64,000 nt of DNA, taken from a virus (Duplodnaviria; Heunggongvirae; Uroviricota; Caudoviricetes). The notes below the pieces were generated by a model. That model did not search any database, was not told where the DNA came from, and worked only from the letters and a program-made list of their open reading frames with translations. Shown piece after piece: positions 10,703 to 63,290 of the stretch; the first letter of the stretch is position 1, and every line of letters begins with the position of its first letter. A program made the translations under genes and the position numbers. The stretch lies in the IMG/VR virus record IMGVR_UViG_3300018065_000012. The stretch is one strand, 5' to 3'.

Positions 10703-11455
10703 ATGGGCGACTTTCCTCACGTATCAAGACAACCTGAATCAGTCATTTACCGCGACAGAGATATTGTTGCTTATATTCCTGACGTTTTGAAAGAAGACAT
10801 TGCTACCGCAATGGAAGTTTTCGACAAACAAAGTGGTACGAGTTTATACAAAGTAGCGGGTGGTAATAATCCCGAAGCGGGTCAACGAATCCTAATGTCA
10901 GGAAGAACGCTTACTAATGGGGTTCTTACGAATGGTTTGAGATGCGCTATTTATAAAACAGGAACTACCGCTACTGACGCAAAAGTTTTGCGGGAGATTA
11001 TCAGCCCAAGAGTTACTTACAATCGGGATGCTAATATCGTTGTGATGTGGTTCTGGACGAATTTTGAATCTGAGGTTACGGAATATGACGATACAGAAGG
11101 GACTCTGTATTGGATTGATGAAGACGATTTTGATTCCAGTAAGACTGTTTACAGAGCACTGTGTTGTACGATTGGCCGTATTGAAAAGCGTTACATCACA
11201 GGAGGGGCGATAGATGGTTCGGGCGCGGCTGATGGTTCTGATTTGTTAACTGTCTTTGAAAAGCCAACGATTTTACAATTGCGCCCAACATCTACGGGCG
11301 GTGGTGTTCCTATTATTGACTTTACTGCTGGTGGTGATTCTGGATTGCTTTACCGAGCAGTAGCAGACCAATCAGGAAATACTATCCAAGTCAAAACGGT
11401 TGATGCTGTTGGCGCGGTTACTGGCGATACAATCGTTTTGCAAGTGGTAACTTAA
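10703..11455 (+). CDS. Hypothetical tail protein (250 aa)
   Basis: Co-oriented and tightly packed within the tail module. Confidence 0.4.
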   Translation: MGDFPHVSRQPESVIYRDRDIVAYIPDVLKEDIATAMEVFDKQSGTSLYKVAGGNNPEAGQRILMSGRTLTNGVLTNGLRCAIYKTGTTATDAKVLREIISPRVTYNRDANIVVMWFWTNFESEVTEYDDTEGTLYWIDEDDFDSSKTVYRALCCTIGRIEKRYITGGAIDGSGAADGSDLLTVFEKPTILQLRPTSTGGGVPIIDFTAGGDSGLLYRAVADQSGNTIQVKTVDAVGAVTGDTIVLQVVT

Positions 11456-13413
11456 TGGCGCTCCCTATTGAAACTGACGCTTATATTCATGGTCTCGGTT
11501 TTGCAGCACCGGGACGGCTTTGGGGAGATATTGTTAGTGGTTCCAATGTAATTAACAATATCTCCCCTTTGAGTTGGATTCACACGGGCATGAAAGTATA
11601 TGTTAACTCTGGAACTACGCGAAATTCAGCTTTCACAAAAGGTTCTCCTATTGTAACGGTGGACACCACTGCGTATTTTATTACTGGAATGCTGATCATT
11701 ATTTCTGCTGTTCGGTTTAGATATACTGGTACAACAGTTATAGGTTCAAAGGAAGTTAATTTGGTTTCAAGTTTCAGAGCTATGACGAATATGGGTGTTG
11801 AAGGAACAGGGATACCGGCTGGCGCAGTTATGGAAACCTATGATGTGCCCGGTAAGAAATTTACAATGGATGTTGAAGCAACCGCAAGTGCTACTGGAGA
11901 CATTTGGTTGTCTACGACTCTTAATCAAGGAATTCCGGCAGGGACGACTATTCTAAGTATCGACAGCCCGACTCAAATAACATTAAGCGAAAACGCCGTA
12001 GAATCAAGTCCTAATTTTTCAATTGGTTATTCTGCTCCTTCTACTTCTTATATTGGAATTCCTGAAGGCACACTAACTACATTGGTGACTCTCCCGAACA
12101 CTGTTGAAATGAGTAAAAACGCAACAGAAACAGGAAGAGCCAACATTTCATTTGAAGGCGTTCCAAACATAGGCGCAATTGAAATGGTTGAACGCGTTAG
12201 TGACCTTCCGAAAATACATAGTGGAGATTTGGTTTACGAGATTCCAACTTTTGATGATGGTGGTTTTGGCTTTCGTGTTTTGCCGATGACGCTGAACGAT
12301 CAATATGGATGGAAGGCGAAAGTAAAACCGCCATATTTTGAAGTTGTTAGCGGAAGCGGTGGAGGCCAGATTGAAAATTTTCTACCAACTTTTGGCGGAA
12401 CTTATTGGCCTTATAACGTGTATACAAACGTCGTTCAGAATGGTGGCGGTGCTCTTCATATTGATTTTTATTCTGATATTGCAAGGACAAATCAATTAGG
12501 TCATACTGAAAGCTATCCTGCGTCGGGGATTGGTTCGCAAAATATAATAGCTGATTCTCAGGATATGGGAGGAAGCATTTCAGTAGATGCATTTGGCCCT
12601 GTTACTACTGATCTTGTTTTAAGGCCGCACAAAAAAGAAGCCGCAATTCGTGCGCCTAAACGATTTTCTGGAACTGCTAATTCTTCTTCATGGCACGCCG
12701 TTGGAAACGAAGCAAATTGTCAATATCAGTTTAATAGTTTAACTTGTTTTACTAAAATGTCAAAAGCTGCTATGATTCCGTTTTGTAATTGGACTACTCA
12801 AATACTTCCACAACTGTCTGCTGCGCCGTCTTTACTGAGAACCGCTCCCGGCGGCACGTTAACGATTAACGATGAAAATTGGGATTTCAAGTTAGCATAT
12901 GTGAATGACTTTTGCTTTAATGGGACAGGGGGGCTTTTGTGCTATCGATGGGTTTCGGAACAAGGGTCGCTTATGCAGGTTGGCGTCATAATGGGTAGTA
13001 TGCCATCAACTCGTTACGATGTTAAGGCGCAAATTGACGTTCAACCCATTGCAAGTTTTGGTGGTGGCCAATATGCTGTTGCTGGTGATGTGACTGTAGC
13101 AGATTTTACCGTTAAAGTAATGGAAGGATACAGCACAACAGGATATTGGTCGGGACCAGTAGCGGGCACTTTTTCGGCAGTATCTGGATTTACTGGAGAG
13201 ATGAGCGTGGCAAGTACAACGGCGGGTCTTACTTTTGAACTTGATACGACTCCTTATGGTTCTGATCCTCGCTTTCTTGGGCTACCAGCAACGAATTGCT
13301 GGTATTCTGCGCCCGGCACTTGGTGTAATGATTTTTTGCAATGTTGGGGAGGTTATCGTTGGGAGTGGGGGCAAACTATTGACGTTGATTTTGCTTACAA
13401 GTATACTGAGTGA
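11455..13413 (+). CDS. Tail fibre or receptor-binding-like protein (652 aa)
   Basis: Gly/Thr/Ser-rich, beta-rich composition typical of fibre or tip proteins. ATGA overlap with the upstream gene. Confidence 0.45.
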   Translation: MALPIETDAYIHGLGFAAPGRLWGDIVSGSNVINNISPLSWIHTGMKVYVNSGTTRNSAFTKGSPIVTVDTTAYFITGMLIIISAVRFRYTGTTVIGSKEVNLVSSFRAMTNMGVEGTGIPAGAVMETYDVPGKKFTMDVEATASATGDIWLSTTLNQGIPAGTTILSIDSPTQITLSENAVESSPNFSIGYSAPSTSYIGIPEGTLTTLVTLPNTVEMSKNATETGRANISFEGVPNIGAIEMVERVSDLPKIHSGDLVYEIPTFDDGGFGFRVLPMTLNDQYGWKAKVKPPYFEVVSGSGGGQIENFLPTFGGTYWPYNVYTNVVQNGGGALHIDFYSDIARTNQLGHTESYPASGIGSQNIIADSQDMGGSISVDAFGPVTTDLVLRPHKKEAAIRAPKRFSGTANSSSWHAVGNEANCQYQFNSLTCFTKMSKAAMIPFCNWTTQILPQLSAAPSLLRTAPGGTLTINDENWDFKLAYVNDFCFNGTGGLLCYRWVSEQGSLMQVGVIMGSMPSTRYDVKAQIDVQPIASFGGGQYAVAGDVTVADFTVKVMEGYSTTGYWSGPVAGTFSAVSGFTGEMSVASTTAGLTFELDTTPYGSDPRFLGLPATNCWYSAPGTWCNDFLQCWGGYRWEWGQTIDVDFAYKYTE

Positions 13414-24264: not shown

Positions 24265-25252
24265 AATTGTTATTGTAGACATCTGGCGTGGCCGAGAGCG
24301 CGTTTCAACGGCAGAAATTTTGCAGATGGCAGGCCGGTGTGCCCGGCAACCAAACCAAATAGGTCATGTTGATATCATTATTAACGAAGATGACGTACAA
24401 ACGTTGAAAGATGAAATGCAGGACGCAGATCATCTTCGAGTTGATTCTGTTCTGTACGATGCAGAAACGCTTGCTTTTCATCTCGTTTCTGAAATTAGCA
24501 GCGGGGAGATAAGGACGCTTTCAGAGGCAAAAAGATGGTACGGAAAAAGTTTCGCGGCGTTTACGGGGTTTTCTTGTGAAGTGGAGCAAGCAGTTGACTT
24601 GCTTTCTGAAGAATGGGAGACAATAACGCGCCGGGGCGATTTTCTTTTTCCTACAGATTTGGCGCATATCGCGAGTCGTTTTTATTTTCATCCAGCAGAC
24701 ATTTACTATTGGCGGGAAAATTTTTTTGAGCTTTTTGAAAGTGAACTTCAAAAAAATGATCCAGCAATTGCTTGGGCGCTATCTAATGTCGCGAGAGAGC
24801 GAAAAAGGGGCAATCTGTACGGTTGTTGGGAGTTGATAGAAGAATACAAAGACCAAGTGTCTTCACTTGGCTTAGACTGTTCAAAAACGATTGCTGGTGG
24901 CTTGGTTTGGTGGAGTCTTTTAGGAGGGCCGTCAACAAGCAAACTGTCCAGTCAAAAGAAAGAAGCAAAAGAGGATTTCGGGCGCATTTATGGTGCGCTC
25001 TTAAAGATCAACGAATGCTCGGGATGGGACAAACGGAAGTTTTTTGAGGATTTGAGAGTACGGATAGCATACAAAATCCCTGATGAACTTGTAAACTTGT
25101 GTAAACTTGAAGGAATTGGAAAAAGTGTTGCGTTTGAGTTGTATAATTTAGGAGTGGAAAACGCGGAAGGAATTCGTGAAAACTGGGACGCAATTGAAAC
25201 GTTTGGAACTGACGAACTGATAGAAAAATTGAGACACTTGTCTTATGGCTAA
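24254..25252 (+). CDS. Ski2/Hel308-like helicase, C-terminal fragment (motif VI, winged helix/ratchet, HhH domain 5)
   Basis: It begins MADRIVIVD...ILQMAGRCAR (motif VI QMAGRAGR) and has a C-terminal HhH GIGKSVAFEL. It is in the same reading frame as the N-terminal fragment, and the ATG lies 8 nt inside the 3' end of the UDG ORF. Confidence 0.8.
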   Translation: MADRIVIVDIWRGRERVSTAEILQMAGRCARQPNQIGHVDIIINEDDVQTLKDEMQDADHLRVDSVLYDAETLAFHLVSEISSGEIRTLSEAKRWYGKSFAAFTGFSCEVEQAVDLLSEEWETITRRGDFLFPTDLAHIASRFYFHPADIYYWRENFFELFESELQKNDPAIAWALSNVARERKRGNLYGCWELIEEYKDQVSSLGLDCSKTIAGGLVWWSLLGGPSTSKLSSQKKEAKEDFGRIYGALLKINECSGWDKRKFFEDLRVRIAYKIPDELVNLCKLEGIGKSVAFELYNLGVENAEGIRENWDAIETFGTDELIEKLRHLSYG

Positions 25253-25715
25253 AGATTTTTGGTTTACAGAGCGGGCAGTCAAAGCTTTCACACAAGCGGC
25301 TGATAATGGAGAGCTATCTCCTCGTCACGTTCGTGATGTAATCCGTTACAAGACTCTCAATATTGATGAGACATTGTTCGAGCCTTACTTGAAGTCAAGC
25401 AATGATTGGGTACGCAGGTGTACTGCGCAAGTGCTTGGAGAAATTGGCAGTAATCTAAAGCCATTAATTGAAGCCGCAAAGATAGAGCAGAACAAAAGCA
25501 CGCTGATAGAAATATTAAAACAATTGATGAAAAGCCGCGAAGGACTTGAAGAGTTAGTTTATTTGCTTGAGTCGAAAGATACGGCAATCAAAGAGCAGGC
25601 AATTGGTATGTTCAGACGTGCTGGTCGTTCAGATTGTTTAATGACGTTGCTTTTTGATGACGATGATTCGATGGTAAGCCGTATCAAGCGGTATATGGAC
25701 GAAGCAAATAAATGA
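25245..25715 (+). CDS. HEAT/PBS-lyase-like repeat protein (156 aa)
   Basis: Repeated pattern as in DWVRRCTAQVLGEIGS...ELVYLLESKDTAIKEQAIGMFRRAG. Confidence 0.5.
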   Translation: MAKDFWFTERAVKAFTQAADNGELSPRHVRDVIRYKTLNIDETLFEPYLKSSNDWVRRCTAQVLGEIGSNLKPLIEAAKIEQNKSTLIEILKQLMKSREGLEELVYLLESKDTAIKEQAIGMFRRAGRSDCLMTLLFDDDDSMVSRIKRYMDEANK

Positions 25716-30962: not shown

Positions 30963-31418
30963 ATGGATCGTATAAAGCTGGCTCGCGAGCTTGTCAAAAT
31001 TGCAAAGCGACTTGTGTCTATTCCGATGGCCGTCGTTGATGCGAATCCATCTCAACTCAGAAGCATTCGTGACAAGATTCAAAGCGCGTTTCATTTGGGA
31101 TCAGCAAAAATAGTTGATGAGTGGTATGGAACCGTCGTGAGTGAAAGAAACGTTAAAGAGCAGCGTGGTGTTTTGAAAAAAGGACCAGACCATAACAAGT
31201 ACTATTACGTAGTTGTTTTTGACGATATGGAAAGAAGCGAGCACTACGTCACAGCCGCAAGTTGGGGGCGTATTGGAAAGAAATACATCTCCGGACAACA
31301 TCGTCAATCAATTCTGTATAAAGGCCCAGACAAACGTGACGCAATTGCTGCGGCAAATAAAAAGATTAACGCCAAGAGAAAATACAAAAAGACCAAGTTT
31401 ATGCCTTGGGGTTTTTAA
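30963..31418 (+). CDS. WGR-domain protein
   Basis: NKYYYVVVFDDMERSEHYVTAASWGRIGKKYISGQHRQSILYKGPDKRDAIAAANKKINAKRKYKKT matches the WGR domain consensus (W-G-R-I-G ... Q ... A ... K ... GY/YK). Confidence 0.7.
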   Translation: MDRIKLARELVKIAKRLVSIPMAVVDANPSQLRSIRDKIQSAFHLGSAKIVDEWYGTVVSERNVKEQRGVLKKGPDHNKYYYVVVFDDMERSEHYVTAASWGRIGKKYISGQHRQSILYKGPDKRDAIAAANKKINAKRKYKKTKFMPWGF

Positions 31419-31786
31419 TGCGGCGAAGATTATTACAACCATTGCGAATGCAACGCGATTATGGTCTGCCGGAAGACGCAGATGAAGATGATGTTTTGTG
31501 CAACACTTTGGATGCAGAAATTCATCAGAAAATTGCAGACCCAAAGCATGAAACGAGAATTGCGAAATCTGTTTTTGAATCCTTTTTCTCAGAACGGATT
31601 GTAAAGACAAAACGCGAGGTTAGGATTATAGCTGGAAAAGGAAAGAACATCAAGGAAGCTTTTTACAACGCTCTCGCAAACGACGAGGACGAATACGGAA
31701 TCGATGGCGGCTGGAACGCTATCCAAAGAGTCTTCCAAACTAAAAAGCGGATTGGCAAATGGATGTTCAAAGTAGAATTTGAATGA
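31418..31786 (+). CDS. Hypothetical protein (122 aa)
   Basis: ATG overlapping the TAA of the WGR gene (taATG). Confidence 0.4.
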   Translation: MRRRLLQPLRMQRDYGLPEDADEDDVLCNTLDAEIHQKIADPKHETRIAKSVFESFFSERIVKTKREVRIIAGKGKNIKEAFYNALANDEDEYGIDGGWNAIQRVFQTKKRIGKWMFKVEFE

Positions 31787-32247: not shown

Positions 32248-33663
32248 ATGGAAAAGAATCTTTGGGAACGTAAAGGTATCATCGGCGGTCATGAAATCAA
32301 GCCTGATGACAATATTGATTCTGCCAATAAGGAGAATATGAAAATGGCAAAGGACAAGAAAGACTTAAAGCTTGATCCGAATTTTGGAGACGAATCGCAG
32401 GAGCAAAATATGCCAAAGAGCGAAGAAAAACCAACGGAGGAAATTGTAGAAGCGCCAGCAGCAGGACTGTTTGTTCCAAATATTCCAATGCCTGTAACGG
32501 CAGAGGAAAGCAAGGAAATAATTAAGGACCAGTGCGAAGTAGCGTTCAAGATTGCTTTTGTTGGTGCAGGTCAAGCTGGCGCGAGGATGGTTGAAGCGTT
32601 CTACAAACTTGGTTATCGCCGCGTTTGTGCTGTAAACACAACCAGTCAAGACCTTGTTGCAATTGATATCCCAGATGAAAACAAGTTTGTTATGGACATT
32701 GGGGAAGGCGGCGCAGGCAAGGAACCAGAGAAGGGCGAACAGGCAGTCAAAAAGCATTATGAGAACGTTTATGATCTGATGCGTCGGAGTTTTGGAAAAG
32801 ACTTCGAACGGATTATTGTTTGTATCGGCGCTGGGGGAGGAACGGGTAGTGGATCAATTGAAACATTGATCGATATTGCTCACGACATTGCAGAGTCTTT
32901 CAAACTGGAAGGCGGACCGGAACAGGTACCGGCTGTTGGCGCGTTGGTTTCAATGCCGATGTCCAATGAGAGTCAGAAAGTAAACGCTAACGCTTCAAAA
33001 GTTCTTGAGGTTCTTTTTGGACGTGTTGGAAAAGACAAAGGTGGAAGATTGTCTCAAAGGACGATGTCGCCATTGATAGTTGTCGACAATGACAGAATCA
33101 GCAAACTATATCCGGGGTTGCCAGTTACGCAGTTTTGGAGCGTCGCAAATCAAAGCATCAGTGGGCTATTCCACTTGTTTAACAACATTGCGGCTGCGAA
33201 AGGCGAAAATACAATTGCGACGTTTGACCGTGCAGATTTCGCAGATGTCCTCAAGAGTGGCGTAATTACATTTGGAGCAACACCATTGATCAAATGGCAG
33301 AACGAAACGGATATCAGTTTTGCAATCAGAGAGAATTTGAAGCATAACATTCTTGTTGCTGATATTGATTTAGGCTCTGCGGCTGTTGCAGCAGGCGTTG
33401 TAATTGGCAAGGACAAAATTTTGAATTCTGTCCCGCAAGATTATTTGAACCATGGATTTGAAATGCTTGGACGGATCATGAAAACAAATAGCGTTGTCCA
33501 TCGTGGAATCTATAAGTTGGGAGAAGCGATGGATAACGTAAAAGAACAGCCGGATTTAGTCGTTTACACAGCATTTGGAGAACTCGGAAAGCCAGACGCA
33601 AGAATGGAAGAAATTCAACGTCTTGGCGCAGTCGATCAACAAAACAGAATGCGTTTGAGATGA
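32248..33663 (+). CDS. Tubulin/FtsZ-family GTPase (PhuZ/TubZ-like)
   Basis: Glycine-rich loop FVGAGQAGARM and the tubulin signature IGAGGGTGSGS (GGGTGSG). An alternative start with a strong SD is at 32344 (aaggagaatATGaaaATG). Confidence 0.75.
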   Translation: MEKNLWERKGIIGGHEIKPDDNIDSANKENMKMAKDKKDLKLDPNFGDESQEQNMPKSEEKPTEEIVEAPAAGLFVPNIPMPVTAEESKEIIKDQCEVAFKIAFVGAGQAGARMVEAFYKLGYRRVCAVNTTSQDLVAIDIPDENKFVMDIGEGGAGKEPEKGEQAVKKHYENVYDLMRRSFGKDFERIIVCIGAGGGTGSGSIETLIDIAHDIAESFKLEGGPEQVPAVGALVSMPMSNESQKVNANASKVLEVLFGRVGKDKGGRLSQRTMSPLIVVDNDRISKLYPGLPVTQFWSVANQSISGLFHLFNNIAAAKGENTIATFDRADFADVLKSGVITFGATPLIKWQNETDISFAIRENLKHNILVADIDLGSAAVAAGVVIGKDKILNSVPQDYLNHGFEMLGRIMKTNSVVHRGIYKLGEAMDNVKEQPDLVVYTAFGELGKPDARMEEIQRLGAVDQQNRMRLR

Positions 33664-34613
33664 GCAAACTTACAAAAGAACTTGTCCGCATTGCAAATGA
33701 AATACTTGGGCCAGAAATGCCCAAGCGCCCATTTGGGAAAACTGGATTTGATGTTGGGATTTTCTCATTGGGCGGTCAAGGTTCTTTGGAAACTCAAGGT
33801 GGCGAGAAAAATTGCCGCGATATTATTAGACGCGCGTTTGATTTGGGGATCAATTATTTCGACACAGCACCGGCTTACGGGCCGTCGCAAAAGTTTTATG
33901 GTGAGGTGATTCCTGATTTCAGAGACGAGATTTTTCTCGCGACAAAAACAAACGAGCGCACAAGAGATAAGTCGCTTGAGCAACTTGAAGATTCATTGAA
34001 GACGCTCAAAACAGATTACATTGATCTTTGGCAGATTCATAACATTGGAAACATCGACGAAGTAAATCAAGTCACTGCAAAAGACGGTTCATTAAAAGCT
34101 TTGATTGAGATGCGCGAACAAGGCGTTGTGAAGCATCTTGGAATTACTGGGCATTCGCATCCAGAGCCATTGCTTGAATTGATGAGTCGATTTGATTTTG
34201 ATTCGGTACTTTGCCCTTGTAATCCTGCGGATGCGGCAATGGGCGATTCTTTTGAAGAAATGCTTATTCCAAAAGCAGACAGTCGCGGGATGGGCATTGT
34301 TGGAATGAAAGTATTTGCCCAAGGACGTATTTTTCATCCTGAAAGCGTTACAACTCCGTGGGAGACCGTTTCGTTCGCTTTGTCTCAACCAGTCAGTACG
34401 ATCATCGTAGGGCACGACACGCCGGAACAACTTGAAGAAAATGTAGCTATTGCAAAAGCGTTTCACAAATTAAGCGATAAACAACAAAAGGAAATTATAG
34501 GCAGGGCGTCAGATCATAAAGAACGGGGAGCTTTTTTCCGTAAAGAGTTTGGTGGTTATGATTCAGGGAAGAAATTCAAACGGCTCATGGTTCAAAGGCG
34601 AGGGAGGCTATAA
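33660..34613 (+). CDS. Aldo/keto reductase family oxidoreductase
   Basis: INYFDTAPAYGPSQKFYGE, FLATKT, DYIDLWQIHN, HLGITGHS. These are canonical AKR motifs. Confidence 0.8.
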   Translation: MSKLTKELVRIANEILGPEMPKRPFGKTGFDVGIFSLGGQGSLETQGGEKNCRDIIRRAFDLGINYFDTAPAYGPSQKFYGEVIPDFRDEIFLATKTNERTRDKSLEQLEDSLKTLKTDYIDLWQIHNIGNIDEVNQVTAKDGSLKALIEMREQGVVKHLGITGHSHPEPLLELMSRFDFDSVLCPCNPADAAMGDSFEEMLIPKADSRGMGIVGMKVFAQGRIFHPESVTTPWETVSFALSQPVSTIIVGHDTPEQLEENVAIAKAFHKLSDKQQKEIIGRASDHKERGAFFRKEFGGYDSGKKFKRLMVQRRGRL

Positions 34614-37074: not shown

Positions 37075-38253
37075 ATGCCAGAAGATGAATTTGCTGAGAT
37101 TGCCGAAGAAGTAGTGCAGACAACGACAGCTCCGAGGAAAGCAAAGAAAGCAGAAAAAAAGGAGGAAAAATCCCGTAAGAAACCAAAAGGTTCAAAACCC
37201 CCGAAAGAACGCAAACCGAAGGCAACTAAGCGGGAAAAGCTTATCAAAAACGTCCTGAAGAACGCCAAGGTTCAAAGCATTCCGACTGTCGACGAGTTGT
37301 TCAGCAAGCGTTCGGGTGATAAAATGAAGATCAAGAAAATTGCCGTTTTCTTGAGCAACAAACCGGGCGATGAAATTCTCGACGAGTTGGCGGAACAGCT
37401 TTCCATTCCAAACACGGTCAATCTTTCAACAGAAGTTGATCTCAAGCAAGTAAAGAAAGTAGGCATCCAGATTCTTGAAGCGGGAAAAGTTTGGATGTCC
37501 ATTGAAGTTGCAAAGCTGAAGGACGGTTCGAAGAATCACGAATGCTGGTCTGGCCGTCATCGTCTTGCTTTTCTTGCTCTCCTTTATGGACCCGATGCGG
37601 AAATCCCGGTCGAAATTTGCTCTATGACAACTCAAGAAGCCAGAGACGCTGTCGTTTACGCAAACAGCAGTCGCAAGGTGCTTGGACTTGAACAGGCAGA
37701 ACATTGCGCAATGAAAGCAACAGAAGGTGCGCCAATGGAAGACATTGAGCGTGATGAGTTGTACGCGAAGATGGCAAGGGCGAAAAAGGGAGCCGTCGAT
37801 TTCGGATTGATCACATTGATGGATTTGAAAGTCAAGGGATTGAAACTGAAATTTGATATTTCAAAATCTGCAAGCCGTGCCGAAGGTAATTGTTTGACCA
37901 CGGTGAAAAACATTCGGGGATTTATCAACACTGCAATGGAAGAGTGGACGAAGACGACAACGCGGAAAGAGTATGATGAAACGCTTTCGGAAGCTGTGGC
38001 GTATCTTAATGCAATTGTTGAAGCGCTTAAGACGCTTGAAGGGTTTGATCCTACTCAGCAATTGGCGGCAAAGCCGCTTTCCGCGCTTGGAAAACTGTTC
38101 AACAAATTTGGCGCTTCCAGCGCAAAGCCGCACGAATATGGCGAGATGATTGCGGAAATCTTGATTGGTCTTGGCCAAATCGGGAGACACAAAGCAGGCG
38201 AAACGTTGAAGCAGTTGGTCCAAAAGCTCAAAGAGGCCACCACTAAAGAATAG
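37075..38253 (+). CDS. ParB-like nuclease-domain protein with Lys-rich N-terminus (paralog A)
   Basis: ECWSGRHRLAFLALLYGPDAEIPVE contains the ParB GxRRxxA-like motif. It is clearly paralogous to the 53122..54618 protein. Confidence 0.45.
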   Translation: MPEDEFAEIAEEVVQTTTAPRKAKKAEKKEEKSRKKPKGSKPPKERKPKATKREKLIKNVLKNAKVQSIPTVDELFSKRSGDKMKIKKIAVFLSNKPGDEILDELAEQLSIPNTVNLSTEVDLKQVKKVGIQILEAGKVWMSIEVAKLKDGSKNHECWSGRHRLAFLALLYGPDAEIPVEICSMTTQEARDAVVYANSSRKVLGLEQAEHCAMKATEGAPMEDIERDELYAKMARAKKGAVDFGLITLMDLKVKGLKLKFDISKSASRAEGNCLTTVKNIRGFINTAMEEWTKTTTRKEYDETLSEAVAYLNAIVEALKTLEGFDPTQQLAAKPLSALGKLFNKFGASSAKPHEYGEMIAEILIGLGQIGRHKAGETLKQLVQKLKEATTKE

Positions 38254-52514: not shown

Positions 52515-52759
52515 TGGATTTGCGCAGGTTTGGTCCAAAGCGAGAAGAGGATTGTGACATCGAGAACGTGTGCCCGGCTTGTGCCAAGCCATTCAAACCG
52601 GGAGACTACACGACATTGATTGCGCTTGGGCCGGGAGACGATCCCGAGGCCCAAAAAAGGTGTCGCGAGGGTAGGCCATATAACGCCATTGCGAAGGAAG
52701 TTCACTGGGCTTGTGCTACGGGGAAAACCGATGGAGAAAGAACAGAAAAAGACGGATAG
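52508..52759 (+). CDS. Small hypothetical Cys-containing protein (83 aa)
   Basis: CPACAKPF...HWACATG. Its 3' end overlaps the ClpS start. Confidence 0.3.
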   Translation: MVMDLRRFGPKREEDCDIENVCPACAKPFKPGDYTTLIALGPGDDPEAQKRCREGRPYNAIAKEVHWACATGKTDGERTEKDG

Positions 52760-53015
52760 TGAAAGCAAAACACGCCTTGCGCCAATGTGGAAGGTATTGC
52801 TTCACAACGACGACAACAACTCAATGGAACATGTTGTTCGTGCGTTGCAAGAGACATTCAAATTTGACGCTATGAAGGCAGTGAGGATTATGTATGAAGC
52901 GCACAACAGCGGGGTTGCGCTTTGCAAGGTTGAGTATCTTGAACATGCTGAATGGCATCGAGATGCGCTCAGGTCGTTCAGTTTGGGAGCCACGATTGAG
53001 CCAGAAAATGATTAA
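52728..53015 (+). CDS. clpS: ClpS-like ATP-dependent Clp protease adaptor
   Basis: MWKVLLHNDDNNSMEHVVRALQETFKFDAMKAVRIMYEAHNSGVALCKVEYLEHAE aligns with E. coli ClpS [56 protein letters not shown]. The ORF is open from 52620. Confidence 0.75.
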   Translation, partial: PMEKEQKKTDSESKTRLAPMWKVLLHNDDNNSMEHVVRALQETFKFDAMKAVRIMYEAHNSGVALCKVEYLEHAEWHRDALRSFSLGATIEPEND

Positions 53016-53058: not shown

Positions 53059-53121
53059 TAGAAGTGTGTGATGGGTTGTAAACGCTTTTGTCTTCAGCTG
53101 TTAGGTTTTGTGGGGGTTTTT

Positions 53122-54618
53122 ATGAAAACTGAAACGAGAGAAAAAACAAAAAGTTTTCGGGAAAAACTTGAGAAATATTCTGCCTTAGCAAAACTACATG
53201 ATTCAGCTTATGAGTCATGCGGCTTAACCCCAAAGCAACTTGAAAAATTGCTTTTGGGCCATCATTTCTCAAACGGCGCAACTAAAGTAAAGCTATCCAA
53301 ACTCGGCGTCTTCAATTCAACTTTTTTCGATGATATTGATTTTGACGAAAATACAAAACAACTGTTGGCTGCTGTAGGGGAAATAGGCGGCAAGATGGCA
53401 AGAGGAAAGGCGCATCCCAATGCGCCTTTGAAATTTTCAGGGGTAAGGGATCTTTTGAATACTATTTTGAGGGACAAAAAATTACTAATGAAGATAGGGG
53501 TTGCAAGAGTTGGGAAAAGCAAATCCGATGAAGTTTGGACAGGACGGAATCGTTGTATGGCGTTATTTATCTTATTTGGTCCAGACGTTATCGTTCCGAG
53601 TGACGTTAGCAAGGAAGCCGTTTCGCAATCTGAATTTGATAATATGGTTTTGAAGGCAAACAAAGGAAGAAGGGTTTCAAAAGCGGAAAGTTCAACCGTT
53701 TTTGTGAACGAACTCGATGAAAGAATGAAAGGCTCTTCAGACATAGAACGGAATTTTGAATTGCTTTCATCTTCAAGAGGCAAAAAATGTTTTTTCCGTG
53801 CGCGTGGTGGCGTGGATGGAGAAGAGATCGGCTTCGAACGAAACGCTTGGAAACACTTACAAATCTGGGATGATTTTACTGGGGAACGCCCAAGACAAAT
53901 TGATAAGAGAAAGACAAACATTAGCATCAGTTTTTTTGAGGATTTTTTCCATTGTTTATCTGGCTCTTGTCATGATCGGTCTTGGACAAAAAACATAAAA
54001 AGCAACGAGAGGAAGAAGGAAAAGATTGATCTTTTTAAGGAACGTGCTTATCGTTGTGAAGCATTTGCGGAAAATTTTGCGGAAATTCTGAATTCTTTGT
54101 TTGAGAATTTTAAGACAAAACTTCAAGGTGAGCTTAAAGGGAAGTATACAGAAGAGGAATTCAGAAACGTGATGGCTGGAATGACTATCGGAAAAATGGG
54201 GAGAAATTGGGGGAAGTTTTTGGGCAGTTCAGGAAGAGCAATAGCATTTTTTCTTTTGGGGCTTCGCCTTACGTCAAATTGTAGCGAGGCGCTTGAAGAA
54301 AAATTCGGTTGGGAACTTTTTTCGGAACATCATAACGTCCTTGTTGAAGCTGCGGAAACATTAGCGCGTTCCTATTTTGATATGTGTTTTGAAGACCAAT
54401 TGGTGAAGGACAAGAAAAACAGATCAAAGCTTATGAGCCGGTTGTTTTATGAGGTGCTGTCAATTAAAGGTTCTGGAGCAAAAGATAAGAAGAAAAGATT
54501 AAGGCATTTGTATGAAGATGTTTTGGTGGACGATCCAGAGTTAAACGGGTGGCTTGGCGAAGCTATTAAAGAAGAAAACAGGGGAATAGCGTTGAGAAAA
54601 TTCGTGACAGAATTATAG
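53122..54618 (+). CDS. ParB-like nuclease-domain protein (paralog B). An alternative GTG start is at 53068.
   Basis: EVWTGRNRCMALFILFGPDVIVPSD parallels ECWSGRHRLAFLALLYGPDAEIPVE in the 37075 gene. Confidence 0.4.
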   Translation: MKTETREKTKSFREKLEKYSALAKLHDSAYESCGLTPKQLEKLLLGHHFSNGATKVKLSKLGVFNSTFFDDIDFDENTKQLLAAVGEIGGKMARGKAHPNAPLKFSGVRDLLNTILRDKKLLMKIGVARVGKSKSDEVWTGRNRCMALFILFGPDVIVPSDVSKEAVSQSEFDNMVLKANKGRRVSKAESSTVFVNELDERMKGSSDIERNFELLSSSRGKKCFFRARGGVDGEEIGFERNAWKHLQIWDDFTGERPRQIDKRKTNISISFFEDFFHCLSGSCHDRSWTKNIKSNERKKEKIDLFKERAYRCEAFAENFAEILNSLFENFKTKLQGELKGKYTEEEFRNVMAGMTIGKMGRNWGKFLGSSGRAIAFFLLGLRLTSNCSEALEEKFGWELFSEHHNVLVEAAETLARSYFDMCFEDQLVKDKKNRSKLMSRLFYEVLSIKGSGAKDKKKRLRHLYEDVLVDDPELNGWLGEAIKEENRGIALRKFVTEL

Positions 54619-57253: not shown

Positions 57254-57274
57254 GAAATCTGAAAAACAGATTTC
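57254..57274 (+). promoter_or_regulatory. Perfect 8-bp inverted repeat gaaatctg-aaaaa-cagatttc directly upstream of promoter copy 8; candidate operator
   Basis: Seen directly in the 130-nt intergenic region. No U-tract follows, so an operator reading is more likely than a terminator. Confidence 0.4.
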
Positions 57275-57277
57275 AGC

Positions 57278-57287
57278 GTTGTATAAT
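57278..57287 (+). promoter_or_regulatory. Promoter-like motif GTTGTATAAT, copy 8 (upstream of the Rad50-like gene)
   Basis: Sequence tttCAGCGTTGTATAATtatagAAGGAGGatagttgATG. Strong SD, with the ATG at 57307. Confidence 0.45.
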
Positions 57288-57306
57288 TATAGAAGGAGGA
57301 TAGTTG

Positions 57307-58611
57307 ATGTTATTGGGCTTGGAGATGATCAATTTTGAAAATCACAAACATACGCGTCTTGAATTTGGAGAAGGCTTCAATGTTCTGTTCGGCCCGAGTA
57401 ATACAGGAAAAACGTCAGCCGTCCGCGCTTTGCGATTGGTAGCTTATAACGAATGGGACCCTGAGTGTTTGCGGTTAGGAACTAAAAAGAGCACGGTGAT
57501 TGCAAGAACAGACAAGGGAACCGTCAAGGTAGAGCGTGGAAAGAATATCAACAATTGGGAAATCACGCCGTTGAACGGGAAGACAATCTGTTTCTCTCGT
57601 CCCGGAAAAAACGTCATTCCAGAAGCTGCTGAAGTGATGGGTCTCAACGCCATTGAGTTGGGATCGTATTCGATTCAGCCAAATATCATGGATCAGCTGG
57701 AAGGGCATTTCTTTTTGGCTGAAGTTGATGGGGAGAAAGTTTCAGGTTCGAGTCGTGCTCAGATAATTGATGAAATTAGTGGCTTAGCTGGAATGGAAGA
57801 GCTTGTCCGGCAAGTTGGTCTTGACAACATCAGGAATTCGCGTTCGGTAAAACAGCTTGAGACGTCAGTTAAAGACCTCGAAAAACAGAAGAATGATGAA
57901 GCGCAGTTAGAAAAAGAGAAAACGCTTTTGAATTCGATAGAGCAAAAGTTGATAACGGCAAAAAAGAAAACGGAGTCAGCGTCTAAAGCATATGAGATGA
58001 GTTCTGAAGCAGTAAAAGTAAGTGAAAATTTGAGCAAGTGTTTGAAGCAGATCGAGCATTATGAAGGGCTGGACGTTGCAGCGGATAAACTGGAGCAGGC
58101 TGAAGAGAAGCGTGAAAAAACGGCTAAGCAAAATGGGTTCATACGGGATTGGAAAACTGCGGATACAGAATTGAGTCAAAGCATTCTCAGACTTCAAAAA
58201 CTACCCAATTTGAGCGTTGCAGACGAAAAGCTTATCAAAGCCTCAGAAAAGCGCGAGAAGCGTATAGAAGCGCTCAAAATCGTTGAATTACACACGGAAA
58301 AGAGTCGAGGTTTGGAGGAAATGCAGACTCGTCAATCCGCCATTGGGGAAGTCTCTGAATCTGAGGAATCCATTTCATTAGCTCGCAAAGCTTTACAAGC
58401 TGTTATAGAGACAAGTAGCTTTATTCAACGGCGTGAAACCTTGTTGGTTTCTTTGAACGGAAATATAGAAGCTCAAGAGGCAATTCAAGAAAAACTTTCA
58501 GGAGCAGAAAGACAAAAGAATGAAGCAATGAAGGAAATTGATTTGTGTCCCATTTGTTTGAAACCAGTACACGAAGGGTGCGACGCATACTGCTCTGGAG
58601 AACAAGAATGA
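57307..58611 (+). CDS. Rad50/SbcC-like protein, N-terminal half only (Walker A head, coiled coil, CxxC zinc hook); no C-terminal ABC half present
   Basis: N-terminus LEMINFENHKHTRLEFGEGFNVLFGPSNTGKTSAVRALRLV (Rad50 N-terminal Walker A). About 330 aa of coiled coil (E/K/L/Q-rich). C-terminus DLCPICLKPVHEGCDAYCSGEQE ends at the hook. No signature LSGG or Walker B anywhere in the window. Confidence 0.65.
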   Translation: MLLGLEMINFENHKHTRLEFGEGFNVLFGPSNTGKTSAVRALRLVAYNEWDPECLRLGTKKSTVIARTDKGTVKVERGKNINNWEITPLNGKTICFSRPGKNVIPEAAEVMGLNAIELGSYSIQPNIMDQLEGHFFLAEVDGEKVSGSSRAQIIDEISGLAGMEELVRQVGLDNIRNSRSVKQLETSVKDLEKQKNDEAQLEKEKTLLNSIEQKLITAKKKTESASKAYEMSSEAVKVSENLSKCLKQIEHYEGLDVAADKLEQAEEKREKTAKQNGFIRDWKTADTELSQSILRLQKLPNLSVADEKLIKASEKREKRIEALKIVELHTEKSRGLEEMQTRQSAIGEVSESEESISLARKALQAVIETSSFIQRRETLLVSLNGNIEAQEAIQEKLSGAERQKNEAMKEIDLCPICLKPVHEGCDAYCSGEQE

Positions 58612-59018
58612 AGGATCATATCGGGAAAAACGTTTTAATCCGCGTTCAAGGAGACTCAGTTCAAGGGAAGTTGATTGCAGATCAACGCGATAGAATAATT
58701 GTTCAAGAAGATGAAAACATAATCACGATAGCTAAAAAGCACATTGGATTTTTCATGGTACGCGGACGTTCTTGCGTCGTGTCCAAATCAGGGTTGGACG
58801 TTTTGTCAGTCGTTGATGGATTTGGAAAAGAAATGGAAGTATATTATGTGACAGATGGAACGTCGTTGAAAAAGAATATTGAGCTTTTCCGCAAAGCCGT
58901 AGGGCTTGGGCCAGCAAACAAGATTGAAAACTTGGGTGATCTATTTTCTGTCGAACAGTCAAAGTTGAAGAAAATTCTTGGCGGAATGATCTTTGGAGAA
59001 CTTGAAAATGGCGAGTGA
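58608..59018 (+). CDS. Hypothetical protein (136 aa)
   Basis: ATGA overlap with the Rad50-like gene. MKDHIGKNVLIRVQGDSVQGKLIADQ... has a small beta-barrel (Sm-like?) flavour, unverified. Confidence 0.4.
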   Translation: MKDHIGKNVLIRVQGDSVQGKLIADQRDRIIVQEDENIITIAKKHIGFFMVRGRSCVVSKSGLDVLSVVDGFGKEMEVYYVTDGTSLKKNIELFRKAVGLGPANKIENLGDLFSVEQSKLKKILGGMIFGELENGE

Positions 59019-59253
59019 AGACAAACTTGAACGCATTAATGAGTTGCGAGAAAAAGTATCTGAATTGACTGCGGAAAAAGACCGCTTAGAAGGTAGTATT
59101 GAAATTCAAGAAAAAGCGTTGGCCGAGATGGAAAAGGAATGTCGTGAAAAGTTTGATTGTGAAATTTCTGAATTGCCAGCGTTGACTGCAAAACTTGAAG
59201 CAGAAGCAGATGCTTTGATTTCTGAAGTTGAGGAATCATTGAAAGGGGAGTAA
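59008..59253 (+). CDS. Small coiled-coil protein (81 aa). An alternative start is at 58993.
   Basis: Heptad-like E/L/K composition. Immediately upstream of ruvC. Confidence 0.3.
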   Translation: MASEDKLERINELREKVSELTAEKDRLEGSIEIQEKALAEMEKECREKFDCEISELPALTAKLEAEADALISEVEESLKGE

Positions 59254-59855
59254 TGGGAGCTGAAATTCAAAGAGAACCGATACGTTTTCATACCATTGGA
59301 TTGGATATGTCTTTGAGCGGGACTGGATTTTGCAAGTTGACTGGTCCATTGATCACTTTGGAAACGATAAAAACAAAGCCAAGGGAATATGCTTCAGACC
59401 TTGATCGGCTGATGTATATTACAGATAAAGTGTTGACGATGATTCCTCCAGAAACGAAATTGATTTGCATTGAGGATTTTTATGTCCCGGCGTCAAGGCA
59501 ACAGTTTGGAGCGGCAATCAATTTGGTCGGGTTGGGAACGTTGATGCGAATCAAACTTTATGAGTCTGGTTTGCCGTTCGCGGTAGTAGCGCCAAGCCAA
59601 TTGAAGAAGTTTGTTGTTGGGAAAGGAAACGCAAACAAAAATTTGGTTCTCAGAGAAGTTTTCAAACGGTGGAGCGTTGACGCAAAGGATGATAATCAAG
59701 CTGACGCTTGTACGTTAGCGAAACTGTCCTTAGCTATTATTGAAAAATTGACCAGCGATAAAGCCTTCCCAAAGTTTCAAGAAGAAGTTATTTCAAAAGT
59801 CATAAACGACCGCCCAAAATACAATTGTGACAGCCTCCTTCAATCAGGTGCATAA
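59253..59855 (+). CDS. ruvC: RuvC-like Holliday junction resolvase
   Basis: TIGLDMSLSGTGF (cf. ILGIDPGSRVTGY), ICIEDFYV (cf. FAIEQVFM), KKFVVGKGNANKNLV (cf. KQTVVGIGSAEKSQV), DNQADACTLAKLS (cf. NPQADAADALAIA). Confidence 0.8.
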   Translation: MGAEIQREPIRFHTIGLDMSLSGTGFCKLTGPLITLETIKTKPREYASDLDRLMYITDKVLTMIPPETKLICIEDFYVPASRQQFGAAINLVGLGTLMRIKLYESGLPFAVVAPSQLKKFVVGKGNANKNLVLREVFKRWSVDAKDDNQADACTLAKLSLAIIEKLTSDKAFPKFQEEVISKVINDRPKYNCDSLLQSGA

Positions 59856-60859: not shown

Positions 60860-62017
60860 ATGATTGAACGATTTGGCGATGTTACATATCTTTCAGGCGA
60901 ACTCATAAAAGGCAAAATCGTCCAGCAACCATTTTTGGCAAAGGGCGATTTTTTGCATGCCGTTTCTGTTGAGTTTGCAACGTTTCAACGCCGCAATGCT
61001 TGTTTGATGAAAATTGAGATTTGGAGAGACGATAAAAACATTAAAACCCACTCTGTGAAAGCAGATTATTTTGAAGACAATGTTTACAAAAAATTCGTCG
61101 TTGACTTAGAACTGGAAAAAGGGCAGCTCTATGAGATTAAAATTTATTCGCCAGATGGAGCAAATGGAAATGCGCTTACTGTAAAACATGGCGCACCGCT
61201 TCACAGAGACCTTCAATTAAAATTCAATGGCGCTCTTCAATCTGGCGAGTTGGCTTGTTTGTTGCATTACGGGAAAGACAAAGACAATGAAATTGAAATT
61301 TTACCTGCCGTTAAAACAACTCCAGAATTTGCTTCAAAGGAAAAGCCGGAACTCAGTATTATTATTCCAACGGCAAAACGTCTTGATCATCTCAAGAATT
61401 GTCTTGACAGCTTGCGGGCGCACACAAAAAATTATGAATTGATAGTGATAGTCAACACGCCTGAAACAGCTTTTACAATCAGCGTTGTAAAGTTACTCAA
61501 TCTTTATCCTAATCACACCATGATCGAAATTCCAAATTATGCAGGGTATGTTGTTCCTTGTAATATGGGTGCTGCTATTTCAAAAGGAAAGTATCTTTGT
61601 ATCTTGAACGACGACGTTATCGTTCAAAAGGATTGGTTGATACATATGATGGCAGCGTTGAAGGCCGATCCAAAATTGGCACAAGTCGGTCCTTCAATGG
61701 GTCATCTGAAATCAGATTTCAGTTTTGTAAACCGTAAAACAAGTCGCCCTTATATTGAGGGTTGGTGTTTCGTTGTCCCAAGGTGTATTTATGAAAAGTT
61801 GGGGTTGTTTGATCCAGAAATTGATTTTGCCTATTGCGAAGATTCAGATTTTTCAACAAACTTGATTCATCATGGTTACAAGATTCGTGAAGTGAAAGCA
61901 AACATCGTCCATATTCGGCATCAAACAAGCAAATCATCAGGAAATGAAATGAAGGAATTCACCGATAGGTGCGAAATTCGCAACAAGAATTTTCTCAGAA
62001 AGAAATGGGCCAAATGA
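60860..62017 (+). CDS. Family 2 glycosyltransferase (GT-A) with N-terminal extra domain
   Basis: LSIIIPTAKRLDHLKNCLDSLRAHT...YELIVIVN, the DXD-type ILNDDVIV, and GWCFVVPRCIYEKLGLFDPEIDFAYCEDSDF. Confidence 0.8.
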   Translation: MIERFGDVTYLSGELIKGKIVQQPFLAKGDFLHAVSVEFATFQRRNACLMKIEIWRDDKNIKTHSVKADYFEDNVYKKFVVDLELEKGQLYEIKIYSPDGANGNALTVKHGAPLHRDLQLKFNGALQSGELACLLHYGKDKDNEIEILPAVKTTPEFASKEKPELSIIIPTAKRLDHLKNCLDSLRAHTKNYELIVIVNTPETAFTISVVKLLNLYPNHTMIEIPNYAGYVVPCNMGAAISKGKYLCILNDDVIVQKDWLIHMMAALKADPKLAQVGPSMGHLKSDFSFVNRKTSRPYIEGWCFVVPRCIYEKLGLFDPEIDFAYCEDSDFSTNLIHHGYKIREVKANIVHIRHQTSKSSGNEMKEFTDRCEIRNKNFLRKKWAK

Positions 62018-62505
62018 ACGAGACAACAAAGATACGACCATTGGCAATAAAGTATTGTGAGGGTTGCGGAATCGATCTTGGTTGCGGCGACGAAAAGATT
62101 CGCCCAGAGGCGATTGGAATTGACGCTGGGATGGATGTGATTCATAGCGGGATAAAAGAATGGCGTGATTTGTCTGTTGTAAATATCAAACACAAAATTG
62201 TTAACCTAAACCTGTTTGAATCAAACAGTTTTAGCTATGTTTACAGTAGTCACTTTTTAGAACATCTTGCTGATCCAGAATTGATGTTAAAAGAAATGAC
62301 GCGTGTGACCTGTCCCGGTGGTCATGTAGTTGTTTATTTGCCCGATCGTTTATTGTACACACAACCAAATTCAGAGCACAAACACATGTGGACATTAGAT
62401 GAGTTTTTGAATTTGCTTCCCGATTGCTTGGAAGTGGTCGAGAACATAGCAAAACATGAAGATTACAGTTTTTTCATTGCGGCTAAAAAGAGAACAAGCG
62501 AATGA
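62014..62505 (+). CDS. Class I SAM-dependent methyltransferase
   Basis: Motif I IDLGCGDEKI, post-I FSYVYSSHFLEHL, and LKEMTRVTCPGGHVVVY. ATGA overlap with the GT2 gene; alternative starts at 61969 and 62005. Confidence 0.65.
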   Translation: MNETTKIRPLAIKYCEGCGIDLGCGDEKIRPEAIGIDAGMDVIHSGIKEWRDLSVVNIKHKIVNLNLFESNSFSYVYSSHFLEHLADPELMLKEMTRVTCPGGHVVVYLPDRLLYTQPNSEHKHMWTLDEFLNLLPDCLEVVENIAKHEDYSFFIAAKKRTSE

Positions 62506-63290
62506 TTTATGATTGCTTCCCGTTTTTCAACGAGCTTGAAATCCTTGATATTCGTTTGAACACGTTGAACAACGTTGTCGATAAGTTCGTAATCAGCGAG
62601 AGTACGCGAACGCACAGCAATGAGTCAAAACCCTTATACTTTCATGAAAATAGAAATCGTTGGGAGAAGTTTGAGCACAAAATTATTCACGTTGTAATTG
62701 ATGATATGCCACAAGGCGAAGACCATTGGGAAAGAGAACGTTATCAACGCAACGAAATGATCCGTGGGCTTGACAATATCAAGGACGGCGACTCTGTTCA
62801 TGTTTCTGATGCGGATGAAATTTCTTCTCCGGTGGCCATTTTAAGAGCGTTGAAGAAAAGGTCTCGCGTGCGAATAAGTCATGTTTGCTATTACTATTAT
62901 TTCAACCTTGTTGCAAATTGGGATTGGACGCATGCGTACGTAATGCCGTGGAGAGAATTCAAAGCGCATCACAATCCTACGCTTACTCATTTCCGACATC
63001 TTGGTTGCAATCGCAAAGTGAAAGGAGGCTGGCACTTTTCTTATTTGGGGGGTACCGAGCAGGTATGTAAGAAGATTAAAGCTTTTGCTCATCAGGAATT
63101 TAACACTCCCGAAACGCTTGCTACTATCAAAACTGCAATTGCTAAGAAACGTTCCTTTTGTGATTTGAATACGGAGTTTACAAGTGTAGTGAATATAGAT
63201 GGTAGCTATCCTGCATACGTACGAGATAATATTGAAAAGTACCGTAAAATGGGTTATGTTTGGGAAGGGGAGAAAGTTGTGCCGCTATGA
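62502..63290 (+). CDS. Glycosyltransferase family 17-like (beta-1,4-GlcNAc-transferase-like)
   Basis: MIYDCFPFFNELEILDIRLNTLNNVVDKFVISESTRTHSNESKPLYF matches the conserved GT17 N-terminal block. DXD-like HVSDADEI. Confidence 0.7.
   Translation: MIYDCFPFFNELEILDIRLNTLNNVVDKFVISESTRTHSNESKPLYFHENRNRWEKFEHKIIHVVIDDMPQGEDHWERERYQRNEMIRGLDNIKDGDSVHVSDADEISSPVAILRALKKRSRVRISHVCYYYYFNLVANWDWTHAYVMPWREFKAHHNPTLTHFRHLGCNRKVKGGWHFSYLGGTEQVCKKIKAFAHQEFNTPETLATIKTAIAKKRSFCDLNTEFTSVVNIDGSYPAYVRDNIEKYRKMGYVWEGEKVVPL

Follow-up and report, generated by a model that had tools for sequence, protein, structure and literature searches.

In canonical SbcCD/Mre11-Rad50 complexes (E. coli SbcC, T4 gp46/gp47, P. 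furiosus Rad50), both lobes of the ATP-binding cassette (ABC) head belong to one chain, whose intramolecular antiparallel coiled coil has the Cys hook at its midpoint. A different construction can be read from the genomes of Firmicutes phages, where the two lobes and a small coiled-coil protein are encoded by separate genes. Here we analyze a 64,000-nucleotide stretch of Caudoviricetes DNA (IMG/VR record IMGVR_UViG_3300018065_000012), hereafter the window, in which the plus-strand gene at 57307..58611 encodes an ABC N-lobe and a helical arm, and stops at the hook. We propose that its product is probably the N-terminal subunit (N-subunit) of a split SbcC/Rad50 whose second half is encoded outside the window, which was one of the two readings offered by the original prediction for this gene.

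Like the canonical systems, the window encodes an ABC N-lobe with Walker A and Q-loop and a Cys hook that follows a helical arm, and its Mre11-type nuclease partner likewise has a helix-loop-helix tail. It differs in that the chain ends at the hook, and in that the arm is short (~210 residues) and repetitive. Among the features that define a single-chain Rad50, the N-lobe and the SbcD partner are present, whereas a C-lobe in the same chain and an antiparallel arm are not; among those that define the N-subunit of a split SbcC, the family profile, the terminal hook and the coiled-coil partner are all present, and the C-subunit is unseen in this genome. Mre11-Rad50 fusions of the Mimivirus R555 type have SbcD fused, in contrast to the unfused N-subunit of the window.

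Split SbcC in Firmicutes phages

The arrangement is most easily followed in the annotation of three Bacillus phages: vB_BboS-125 (gp32/gp34/gp35), phBC6A51 (BC1852/BC1854/BC1855, with SbcD as BC1857) and 0305phi8-36 (gp8/gp7/gp5). Each encodes an N-subunit homologue that ends at CPxC and is either 471–518 residues long or, in 0305phi8-36, fused behind SbcD; then a coiled-coil protein of 77–92 residues; and then a protein of 211–236 residues named “ATPase” or “chromosome segregation ATPase”. The corresponding PHROGs are 16465, 18563 and 15167. SbcD follows as an annotated gene in phBC6A51 and as an unannotated SbcD-like stretch in vB_BboS-125, and is fused in front in 0305phi8-36. The 211–236-residue protein carries an RGGG signature, an hhhDE Walker B motif and a T-H H-loop, and it matches the C-terminal part of SMC_N, positions 804–893 of 895 in the NCBIfam Rad50 profile (the last 90 residues), and phrog_15167. 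Pfam detects these C-lobes weakly (3.6e-5 and 0.06).

The same order recurs in uncultivated phages. Among 57 C-lobe loci from IMG/VR, 49 have an N-subunit gene 0.2–3.7 kb upstream, always ending in CP[LT]C; these 49 are Firmicutes-phage loci with a C-lobe protein of ~210 residues, and often with SbcD downstream as well. In the remaining eight, the flank that was read shows no N-subunit, several of these loci being cut by the contig end, and the small coiled-coil gene (~78 residues) is found in 52 of the 57. A HMMER scan yielded at least 4,094 clusters of stand-alone C-lobe proteins at 50% identity, the best 150 matches being 144–323 residues long; a profile search of a large database with the C-half gave, among the matches listed, close Firmicutes relatives only. 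Taken together, the Firmicutes gene order, the IMG/VR loci and the number of C-lobe clusters indicate that, as judged by sequence, split SbcC is a large natural family made in three pieces plus SbcD.

Its pieces have been in the databases since phBC6A51 under unrelated names, and our searches of PMC and bioRxiv turned up no account of a split three-piece SbcC/Rad50 in phages, nor of its scattering across the genomes of large phages. Yoshida et al. 2011 (PMC3175470), in the passages on 0305phi8-36, list gp8, the fusion of SbcD and the N-subunit, with one P-loop NTPase segment given as “not observed”; those passages carry no mention of the separately encoded C-lobe gp5.

The half-size N-subunit and its partners

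The open reading frame (ORF; 57304/57307..58611) encodes a 434-residue product starting at ATG 57307, a start on which public gene calls agree (P0001, 100% identical; also locus L077, which covers the 10 kb downstream of the window). A protein of identical sequence is encoded on 12 contigs drawn from several samples, the longest contig being 338,319 bp. Walker A (FGPSNTGKTSAV) occupies residues 28–39, and the C-terminus reads DLCPICLKPVHEGCDAYCSGEQE, followed by the stop codon. Pfam assigns AAA_23 (2e-11) and AAA_15 (4e-9), and the N-terminal end of the NCBIfam Rad50 profile PRK03918 matches at 1.5e-7. An AlphaFold2 (AF2) model built with 88 homologues as input has a mean predicted local distance difference test (pLDDT) score of 84.9, rising to ~97 in the N-lobe, which Foldseek aligns with the N-terminal chains of Rad50 (1f2u/1ii8), SMC, RecF and RecN. 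Residues 130–170 are modeled poorly (pLDDT ~50–55), and the equivalent part of Rad50 packs on lobe II. The predicted Rad50-like N-half, consisting of a Walker A head, a helical arm and a terminal Cys motif followed by a stop, is thus real.

Within the split family, phrog_16465 matches the protein at 2e-22 over residues 6–359, that is, over head and arm, and vB_BboS-125 gp32 falls in the same PHROG (1.9e-150). Matches to the Bacillus phage N-subunits by tblastn range from 1e-13 to 1e-17, with an identity of only 24–28%; among deposited phages the protein matches only Bacillus phages vB_BboS-125, phBC6A51, PHBA67-T and 0305phi8-36, and Microbacterium phage Magritte. All 88 homologues from a large protein database are 349–486 residues long, and all 88 carry the CP motif at a distance of 13–73 residues (median 21) from the C-terminus. 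Despite a mean column identity of 27%, the Q-loop, N[IV]MDQLExHF, hardly varies across them. On this evidence the window protein belongs to the N-subunit family (phrog_16465) of the widespread, naturally split SbcC, its ATP-binding elements (Walker A and Q-loop) are under selection, and its half size is the native state of the family and not an error.

The arm had originally been described as a long coiled coil. A helical arm is indeed present, but it really consists of four tandem repeats of ~47 residues, each formed by one long helix and a short turn (helices at residues 198–251, 255–298, 302–345 and 350–410). Alignment of the repeats with one another by hhalign gives probabilities of 92–98%, in register, and the lengths of the N-subunit family are trimodal with steps of ~45 residues. 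The AF2 model contains no returning coiled-coil strand, and the antiparallel arm of a single-chain Rad50 is accordingly missing; a chain that ends at its hook has no means of forming the intramolecular antiparallel coiled coil of canonical Rad50. The arm helices may instead fold into a zig-zag inside a single chain, or they may pair across two N-subunits that the terminal Cys motif clamps together.

The polypeptide ends 21 residues after the first hook Cys. In the family, Cys414 and Pro415 are invariant and Cys425 is 90% conserved; a Cys at position +10 to +12 is found in 86 of the 88 members, while a CxxC is found in 21 (24%), the window protein included. The zinc-hook-like CPIC...C of the original prediction is therefore present in this protein, but the family-wide motif is CP-x(9-10)-C, which most of the jumbo-phage family has where the Firmicutes phages have CPxC. 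The C, C, H, C set of this subclade could bind zinc within one chain. Magritte gp155 (L078 6001..7053) lacks a C-terminal Cys, which shows that not every N-subunit of the split family has the hook.

The N-subunit gene opens a four-gene cassette (57307..59855) in the order N-subunit, Sm-like protein, small coiled-coil protein, RuvC, with an overlap at each junction. In Firmicutes phages, the phrog_18563 gene lies between those of the N- and C-subunits. The 81-residue protein of the window aligns with this small coiled-coil family over its full length (hhalign 97.4%, E 1.5e-11; controls 9–33%), and its gene stands beside the window-type N-half in 16 of 16 first relative loci checked (L004–L019). 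Unlike its Firmicutes counterparts, the window cassette contains the Sm-like protein and RuvC as insertions; RuvC is kept downstream in L004, L006 and L007, and a PD-(D/E)XK nuclease takes its place in L008. The Sm-like protein is translationally coupled to the N-subunit gene, its match to DUF2642 is weak, and its second half is Cys-rich in L007, L011 and L015.

The Mre11/SbcD-like gene reported upstream was confirmed by tblastn (1e-23 to phBC6A51 SbcD), by phrog_100 (1.6e-9) and by structure prediction: the AF2 model has a pLDDT of 89.6 and a predicted template modeling score (pTM) of 0.78, and the top 50 Foldseek matches in the PDB are all Mre11/SbcD. In the model, a flexible linker is followed by three C-terminal helices that resemble the Rad50-binding tail. 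The best deposited-phage matches of this SbcD are Bacillus phages that carry split SbcC; its homologues lie on contigs of 338,319 and 54,194 bp, sizes shared with contigs that bear the N-subunit, and an IMG/VR scan with the window SbcD as the single query gave no matches. As stated originally, the gene is not adjacent to the N-half.

The locus thus resembles Firmicutes split SbcC in its phrog_16465 membership, in a chain ending just after a CP..C hook, in an orthologous coiled-coil protein, in its SbcD lineage, and in arm repeats of ~45–47 residues. With the N-subunit, the small coiled-coil orthologue and SbcD, the window holds three of the four split-SbcC pieces, and the C-lobe is the fourth. 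Where the Firmicutes phages have all parts within ~3 kb, the window has SbcD 20 kb away and lacks a C-lobe gene.

The C-lobe gene and alternative explanations

We searched for the fourth piece by several methods. No C-lobe was found among the window ORFs in six frames by tblastn with known C-halves, and hidden Markov models (HMMs) built from 3, 25 and 175 C-lobes, and from five jumbo-type C-lobes, detected none in the 64 kb. Alignment by hhalign of every unassigned window ORF to the C-half alignment gave probabilities below 2% throughout; Pfam, run on all window ORFs of at least ~115 residues, showed no second ABC/SMC piece; and motif patterns (signature GG with Walker B and H-loop, DE..K, and hhhhDE) matched the positive controls and nothing else in the window. 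These searches uphold the earlier statement that the 64 kb contain no C-terminal ABC half or signature motif. The 10 kb downstream (L077) form a glycosylation and radical-SAM cluster. In a syntenic relative, ~41 kb (L168 and L169) reaching from SbcD to beyond the N-half gene contain no C-lobe, and the SbcD neighborhoods of relatives L168 and L170 contain no C-lobe gene. The HMMs do catch divergent variants, as judged by their detection of DEPCRQVS in L171 (3e-49), DECWKH in L228 (7e-40) and CDESFNNVS in gp14 of Tunturiibacter phage Tunturi_5 (3.6e-33).

Three window ORFs were considered as hidden C-lobes and rejected: the 136-residue Sm-like protein, which has no ABC motifs; the upstream 255-residue ORF, which has none either and is not conserved; and the RuvC ORF, which gave weak tblastn matches and is RuvC by phrog_159. 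Run on the window and the loci of 16 relatives, the 3- and 25-sequence HMMs scored only the small coiled-coil ORF, and only over the coiled-coil part. This protein is the best C-lobe HMM match, at sub-significant E values of 0.004–1, in the window, where its ORF spans 58993..59253, in L004–L019, in L077 and in L169, and the alignments always fall on the coiled-coil neck of the C-lobe; the likeness may reflect shared ancestry or mere coiled-coil composition.

In relatives, the C-lobe gene is dispersed. L228 carries a 210-residue C-lobe gene (GFGGGMADTISVPLRL...CILDECWKHID...CSHH) 7 kb upstream of a window-type N-half. Seeded with this C-lobe, an IMG/VR search returned genes of this type from two jumbo-phage contigs, both of which also bear a window-type N-half cassette: in IMGVR_UViG_3300032304_002285 (180,758 bp) the C-lobe lies near 55.4 kb and the N-half at 156.7 kb, ~101 kb apart, and in IMGVR_UViG_3300038300_000071 (202,452 bp) they lie near 42.0 kb and at 186.5 kb, ~144 kb apart. 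C-lobes of the jumbo type show the motifs GFGGG[VM][AS]D.ISVP.RL, [CI][IV]LDEC[WY]KH.D and [CT][ST]HH. An IMG/VR scan for the hallmark hhhDExGKHh retrieved none of the jumbo contigs. Magritte, a cultured Microbacterium phage with a complete genome, shows a similar separation: gp2, an “exonuclease” of 216 residues, is a C-lobe (7e-56), and gp155, a “hypothetical” protein of 350 residues encoded ~93 kb away, is an N-subunit (3e-20) whose 25% identity to the window protein extends over the head only. Tunturi_5 (309 kb, complete genome) encodes a stand-alone C-lobe as gp14 (L264 5935..6600); its gp23, tried as an N-subunit, gave no match and was rejected.

Because the C-lobe gene is dispersed in relatives, the best explanation of the window gene is a split Rad50 with its second half elsewhere; phrog_16465 membership and C-lobe genes 7, 101 and 144 kb away in relatives support what the original prediction put forward. 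In Rad50 structures, formation of the P-loop core of an ABC N-lobe depends on the Walker B strand that the C-lobe contributes, and the N- and C-subunits would therefore have to assemble into one head. The N-subunit would supply the P-loop half of this head (Walker A and Q-loop), the four-repeat arm and the terminal Cys hook, and a separate protein of ~210 residues would bring the signature, Walker B, D-loop and H-loop, assembling with it in trans in a way that would mirror the two halves of canonical Rad50 within one chain. The ~80-residue coiled-coil protein encoded two genes downstream would be a third subunit and may bind the base of the arm, as may the C-lobe through its ~90-residue neck. 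Together with SbcD/Mre11, the complex would process DNA ends and hairpins while the phage DNA replicates and recombines; ATP-driven head engagement would control SbcD, as in SbcCD, and the adjacent RuvC would act in the same pathway. Since the genes are scattered in this jumbo-phage lineage, the C-lobe gene would most probably lie in the remaining 274 kb of the 338-kb genome.

Several observations weigh against this proposal. No method found a C-lobe gene in the window plus the 10 kb downstream (of the 338-kb contig), and the flanks read for ~95 N-half loci are without one except in L228. In L252, L253 and L228 the C-lobe gene is located downstream of NAD ligase and/or upstream of the N-half gene, and the corresponding window interval from NAD ligase to the N-half (52–57 kb) is without one. 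Only two of the six large (>130 kb) IMG/VR contigs with a window-type N-half showed a C-lobe gene. Finally, the AF2 model of the N-subunit is a monomer prediction with a pTM of 0.39.

The failure to see a C-lobe here, the two-in-six count and the empty interval after NAD ligase keep open the alternative that the C-lobe was lost in this lineage, leaving the N-half, the Sm-like protein, the coiled-coil protein and RuvC as a tethering or junction-processing module that lacks Rad50-type ATP hydrolysis. The absence extends over the 74 kb around the gene, the ~41 kb of L168/L169 and most N-half flanks, and in four of the six large contigs, 3300029288_000063, 3300025858_000009, 3300035698_009252 and 3300042261_000588, no C-lobe gene appeared; moreover, the overlapping cassette is conserved with a nuclease (RuvC or PD-(D/E)XK) where Firmicutes phages have the C-lobe gene. 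Loss is nevertheless unlikely, given that a Walker A and Q-loop almost invariant in 88 diverged sequences are hard to explain without a complete nucleotide site, that two relatives with the same cassette carry the C-lobe gene 100–144 kb away, and that the SbcD partner is kept, including its Rad50-binding-like tail. We regard as slightly more doubtful still the further claim that a lineage that dispensed with the Rad50 C-lobe turned these four proteins into a new tether of DNA ends or junctions, which would keep its P-loop and not be a Rad50-type ATPase. Pairing of the N-half with an unrecognized C-lobe, whether very divergent or joined to a further domain and encoded within the window or beyond it, or else supplied by a different ABC protein, would fit both the weak response of Pfam even to Firmicutes C-lobes and the many window ORFs without a family match; we find it improbable, as the HMMs recover the very different variants of L171, L228 and Tunturi_5, and none of the window ORFs shows a Walker B motif in ABC-like surroundings.

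The window protein shares with OLD-family and related defense ABC ATPases (AriA, GajA, PtuA and LmuB; AAA_15/AAA_21) a P-loop N-lobe followed by a helical insertion, and weak PADLOC matches to AriA (2e-10), GajA (~1e-7) and LmuB (5e-7) point toward an ABC ATPase of anti-phage defense or counter-defense, as does the Pfam AAA_15 match. However, most of these matches span only the first ~45–90 residues, a generic P-loop N-lobe, and the longer ones, such as that to AriA (residues 8–355 on profile positions 9–264 of 373), end before the C-lobe, which none of them reaches. In the defense families a single chain contains the whole ABC domain and has a nuclease partner, there is no terminal hook and the context is one of defense, whereas the window gene sits in a replication and recombination module with SbcCD-type partners and scores far better with phrog_16465, making such a role very improbable. 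Nor did Pfam, PHROG, NCBIfam and PADLOC profiles assign the protein to an unrelated coiled-coil ATPase family, a possibility the original prediction had named against itself together with a frameshift. The reading as a full-length Rad50 that is truncated, or broken by a frameshift from sequencing or assembly, has nothing in its favor beyond the half size itself, and can in effect be excluded because all 88 homologues are half-size, with no full-length form among them. The recurrence of the identical protein across contigs and samples, the ending of every homologue shortly after the CP motif, and downstream frames that encode conserved, unrelated proteins argue against it as well.

Surrounding genes and implications

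Features of the N-subunit gene, its product and its partners. Positions are those of the window.
Feature	Position	Strand	Remarks
Promoter-like CTGAAA-17-TATAAT	57259..57287	+	Consensus match only; count not above shuffled expectation
AGGAGG ribosome-binding site	57293..57298	+	8 nucleotides before ATG 57307; consensus match only
N-subunit gene, probable split SbcC/Rad50	57307..58611	+	ABC N-lobe, helical repeat arm, C-terminal hook, stop
Walker A/P-loop, G29-T36 (GPSNTGKT)	57391..57414	+	G-x-S-[ND]-x-GK[ST] in 86/88 family members
Q-loop region, N126-F135 (NIMDQLEGHF)	57682..57711	+	Q130 invariant
Helical arm, residues 198-410	57898..58536	+	Four tandem ~47-residue repeats; AF2 secondary structure, pLDDT 85-95
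Hook-like Cys motif, C414-P-I-C417-x4-H422-x2-C425	58546..58581	+	9 residues before stop
Sm-like/DUF2642-like protein, 136 residues	58608..59018	+	Start overlaps N-subunit stop (ATGA); adjoins N-subunit in most jumbo-phage relatives
Small coiled-coil subunit (putative), 81 residues	59008..59253	+	Orthologue of phrog_18563; gene call from L077
RuvC-like Holliday-junction resolvase, 200 residues	59253..59855	+	Pfam RuvC 3.9e-7, phrog_159 1.7e-32; last cassette gene
SbcD/Mre11-like nuclease, 306 residues	36093..37013	+	20 kb upstream of N-subunit gene; C-terminal helix-loop-helix tail

The window as a whole is a jumbo-phage replication and recombination module with all genes on the plus strand. 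It encodes SNF2, DnaB-like and DEAD helicases, a primase, a sigma factor, UDG, RecA, FEN and tubulin, as well as Pol III alpha, DHH, GyrB/GyrA, NAD ligase, ClpS and RuvC. GC skew is positive over the whole window and its cumulative curve rises monotonically, with every credible gene on the plus strand. The tubulin gene, of the FtsZ family and PhuZ-like, lies within the module at 32248..33663; its equivalent in L168 (6279..9110, 943 residues) holds an intein bearing a LAGLIDADG domain, and inteins likewise interrupt Pol III alpha in L008.

Two paralogous ORFs, 37075..38253 (392 residues) and 53068..54618 (516 residues), share a ParB-like motif, W[ST]GR[HN]R...L[AF][IL]L[YF]GPD, and have no Pfam match; the former follows SbcD and the latter lies upstream of the N-half gene, as does a similar ORF of 533 residues in L228 (6627..8228). 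Very large ORFs without a Pfam match occupy 635..7075 (2146 residues), 7086..9602 (838 residues) and 11455..13413 (652 residues), and the 2146-residue product is absent from the record as an exact gene call; the first ORF extends past the edge of the window. Genes unusual for a phage encode a ClpS adaptor homologue, a WGR-domain protein, a weak Smr-like ORF, an aldo/keto reductase and a HEAT-repeat protein (52620..53015, 30963..31418, 31406..31786, 33660..34613 and 25245..25715, respectively). Just after the RuvC cassette begins a cluster of glycosyltransferase, methyltransferase and radical-SAM/SPASM genes (60860..63290; L077 10786..20789) that continues at least 10 kb beyond the window and may modify DNA or the cell surface.

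Judged from the comparisons above, the function of the split system appears to be ordinary, namely SbcCD-type end processing, and its construction unusual. For annotation the consequences are practical: the pieces are named “exonuclease”, “chromosome segregation ATPase”, “ParA” or “hypothetical”, and given that they are also scattered over at least 100 kb in large phages, a complete SbcCD can be mistaken for an incomplete or missing one.

The antiparallel coiled coil of Rad50 and its apical zinc hook are thought to link events at the hook to the ATPase head, by a mechanism that is debated. In the present family, which is large and natural, the chain is cut exactly at the hook, the arm is short and built from 47-residue repeats, and the head would be made from two polypeptides with a small coiled-coil protein. 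Should the subunits come together as proposed, the chain would not need to be continuous through the hook, and the family would offer a small, separable system for testing the roles of arm and hook.

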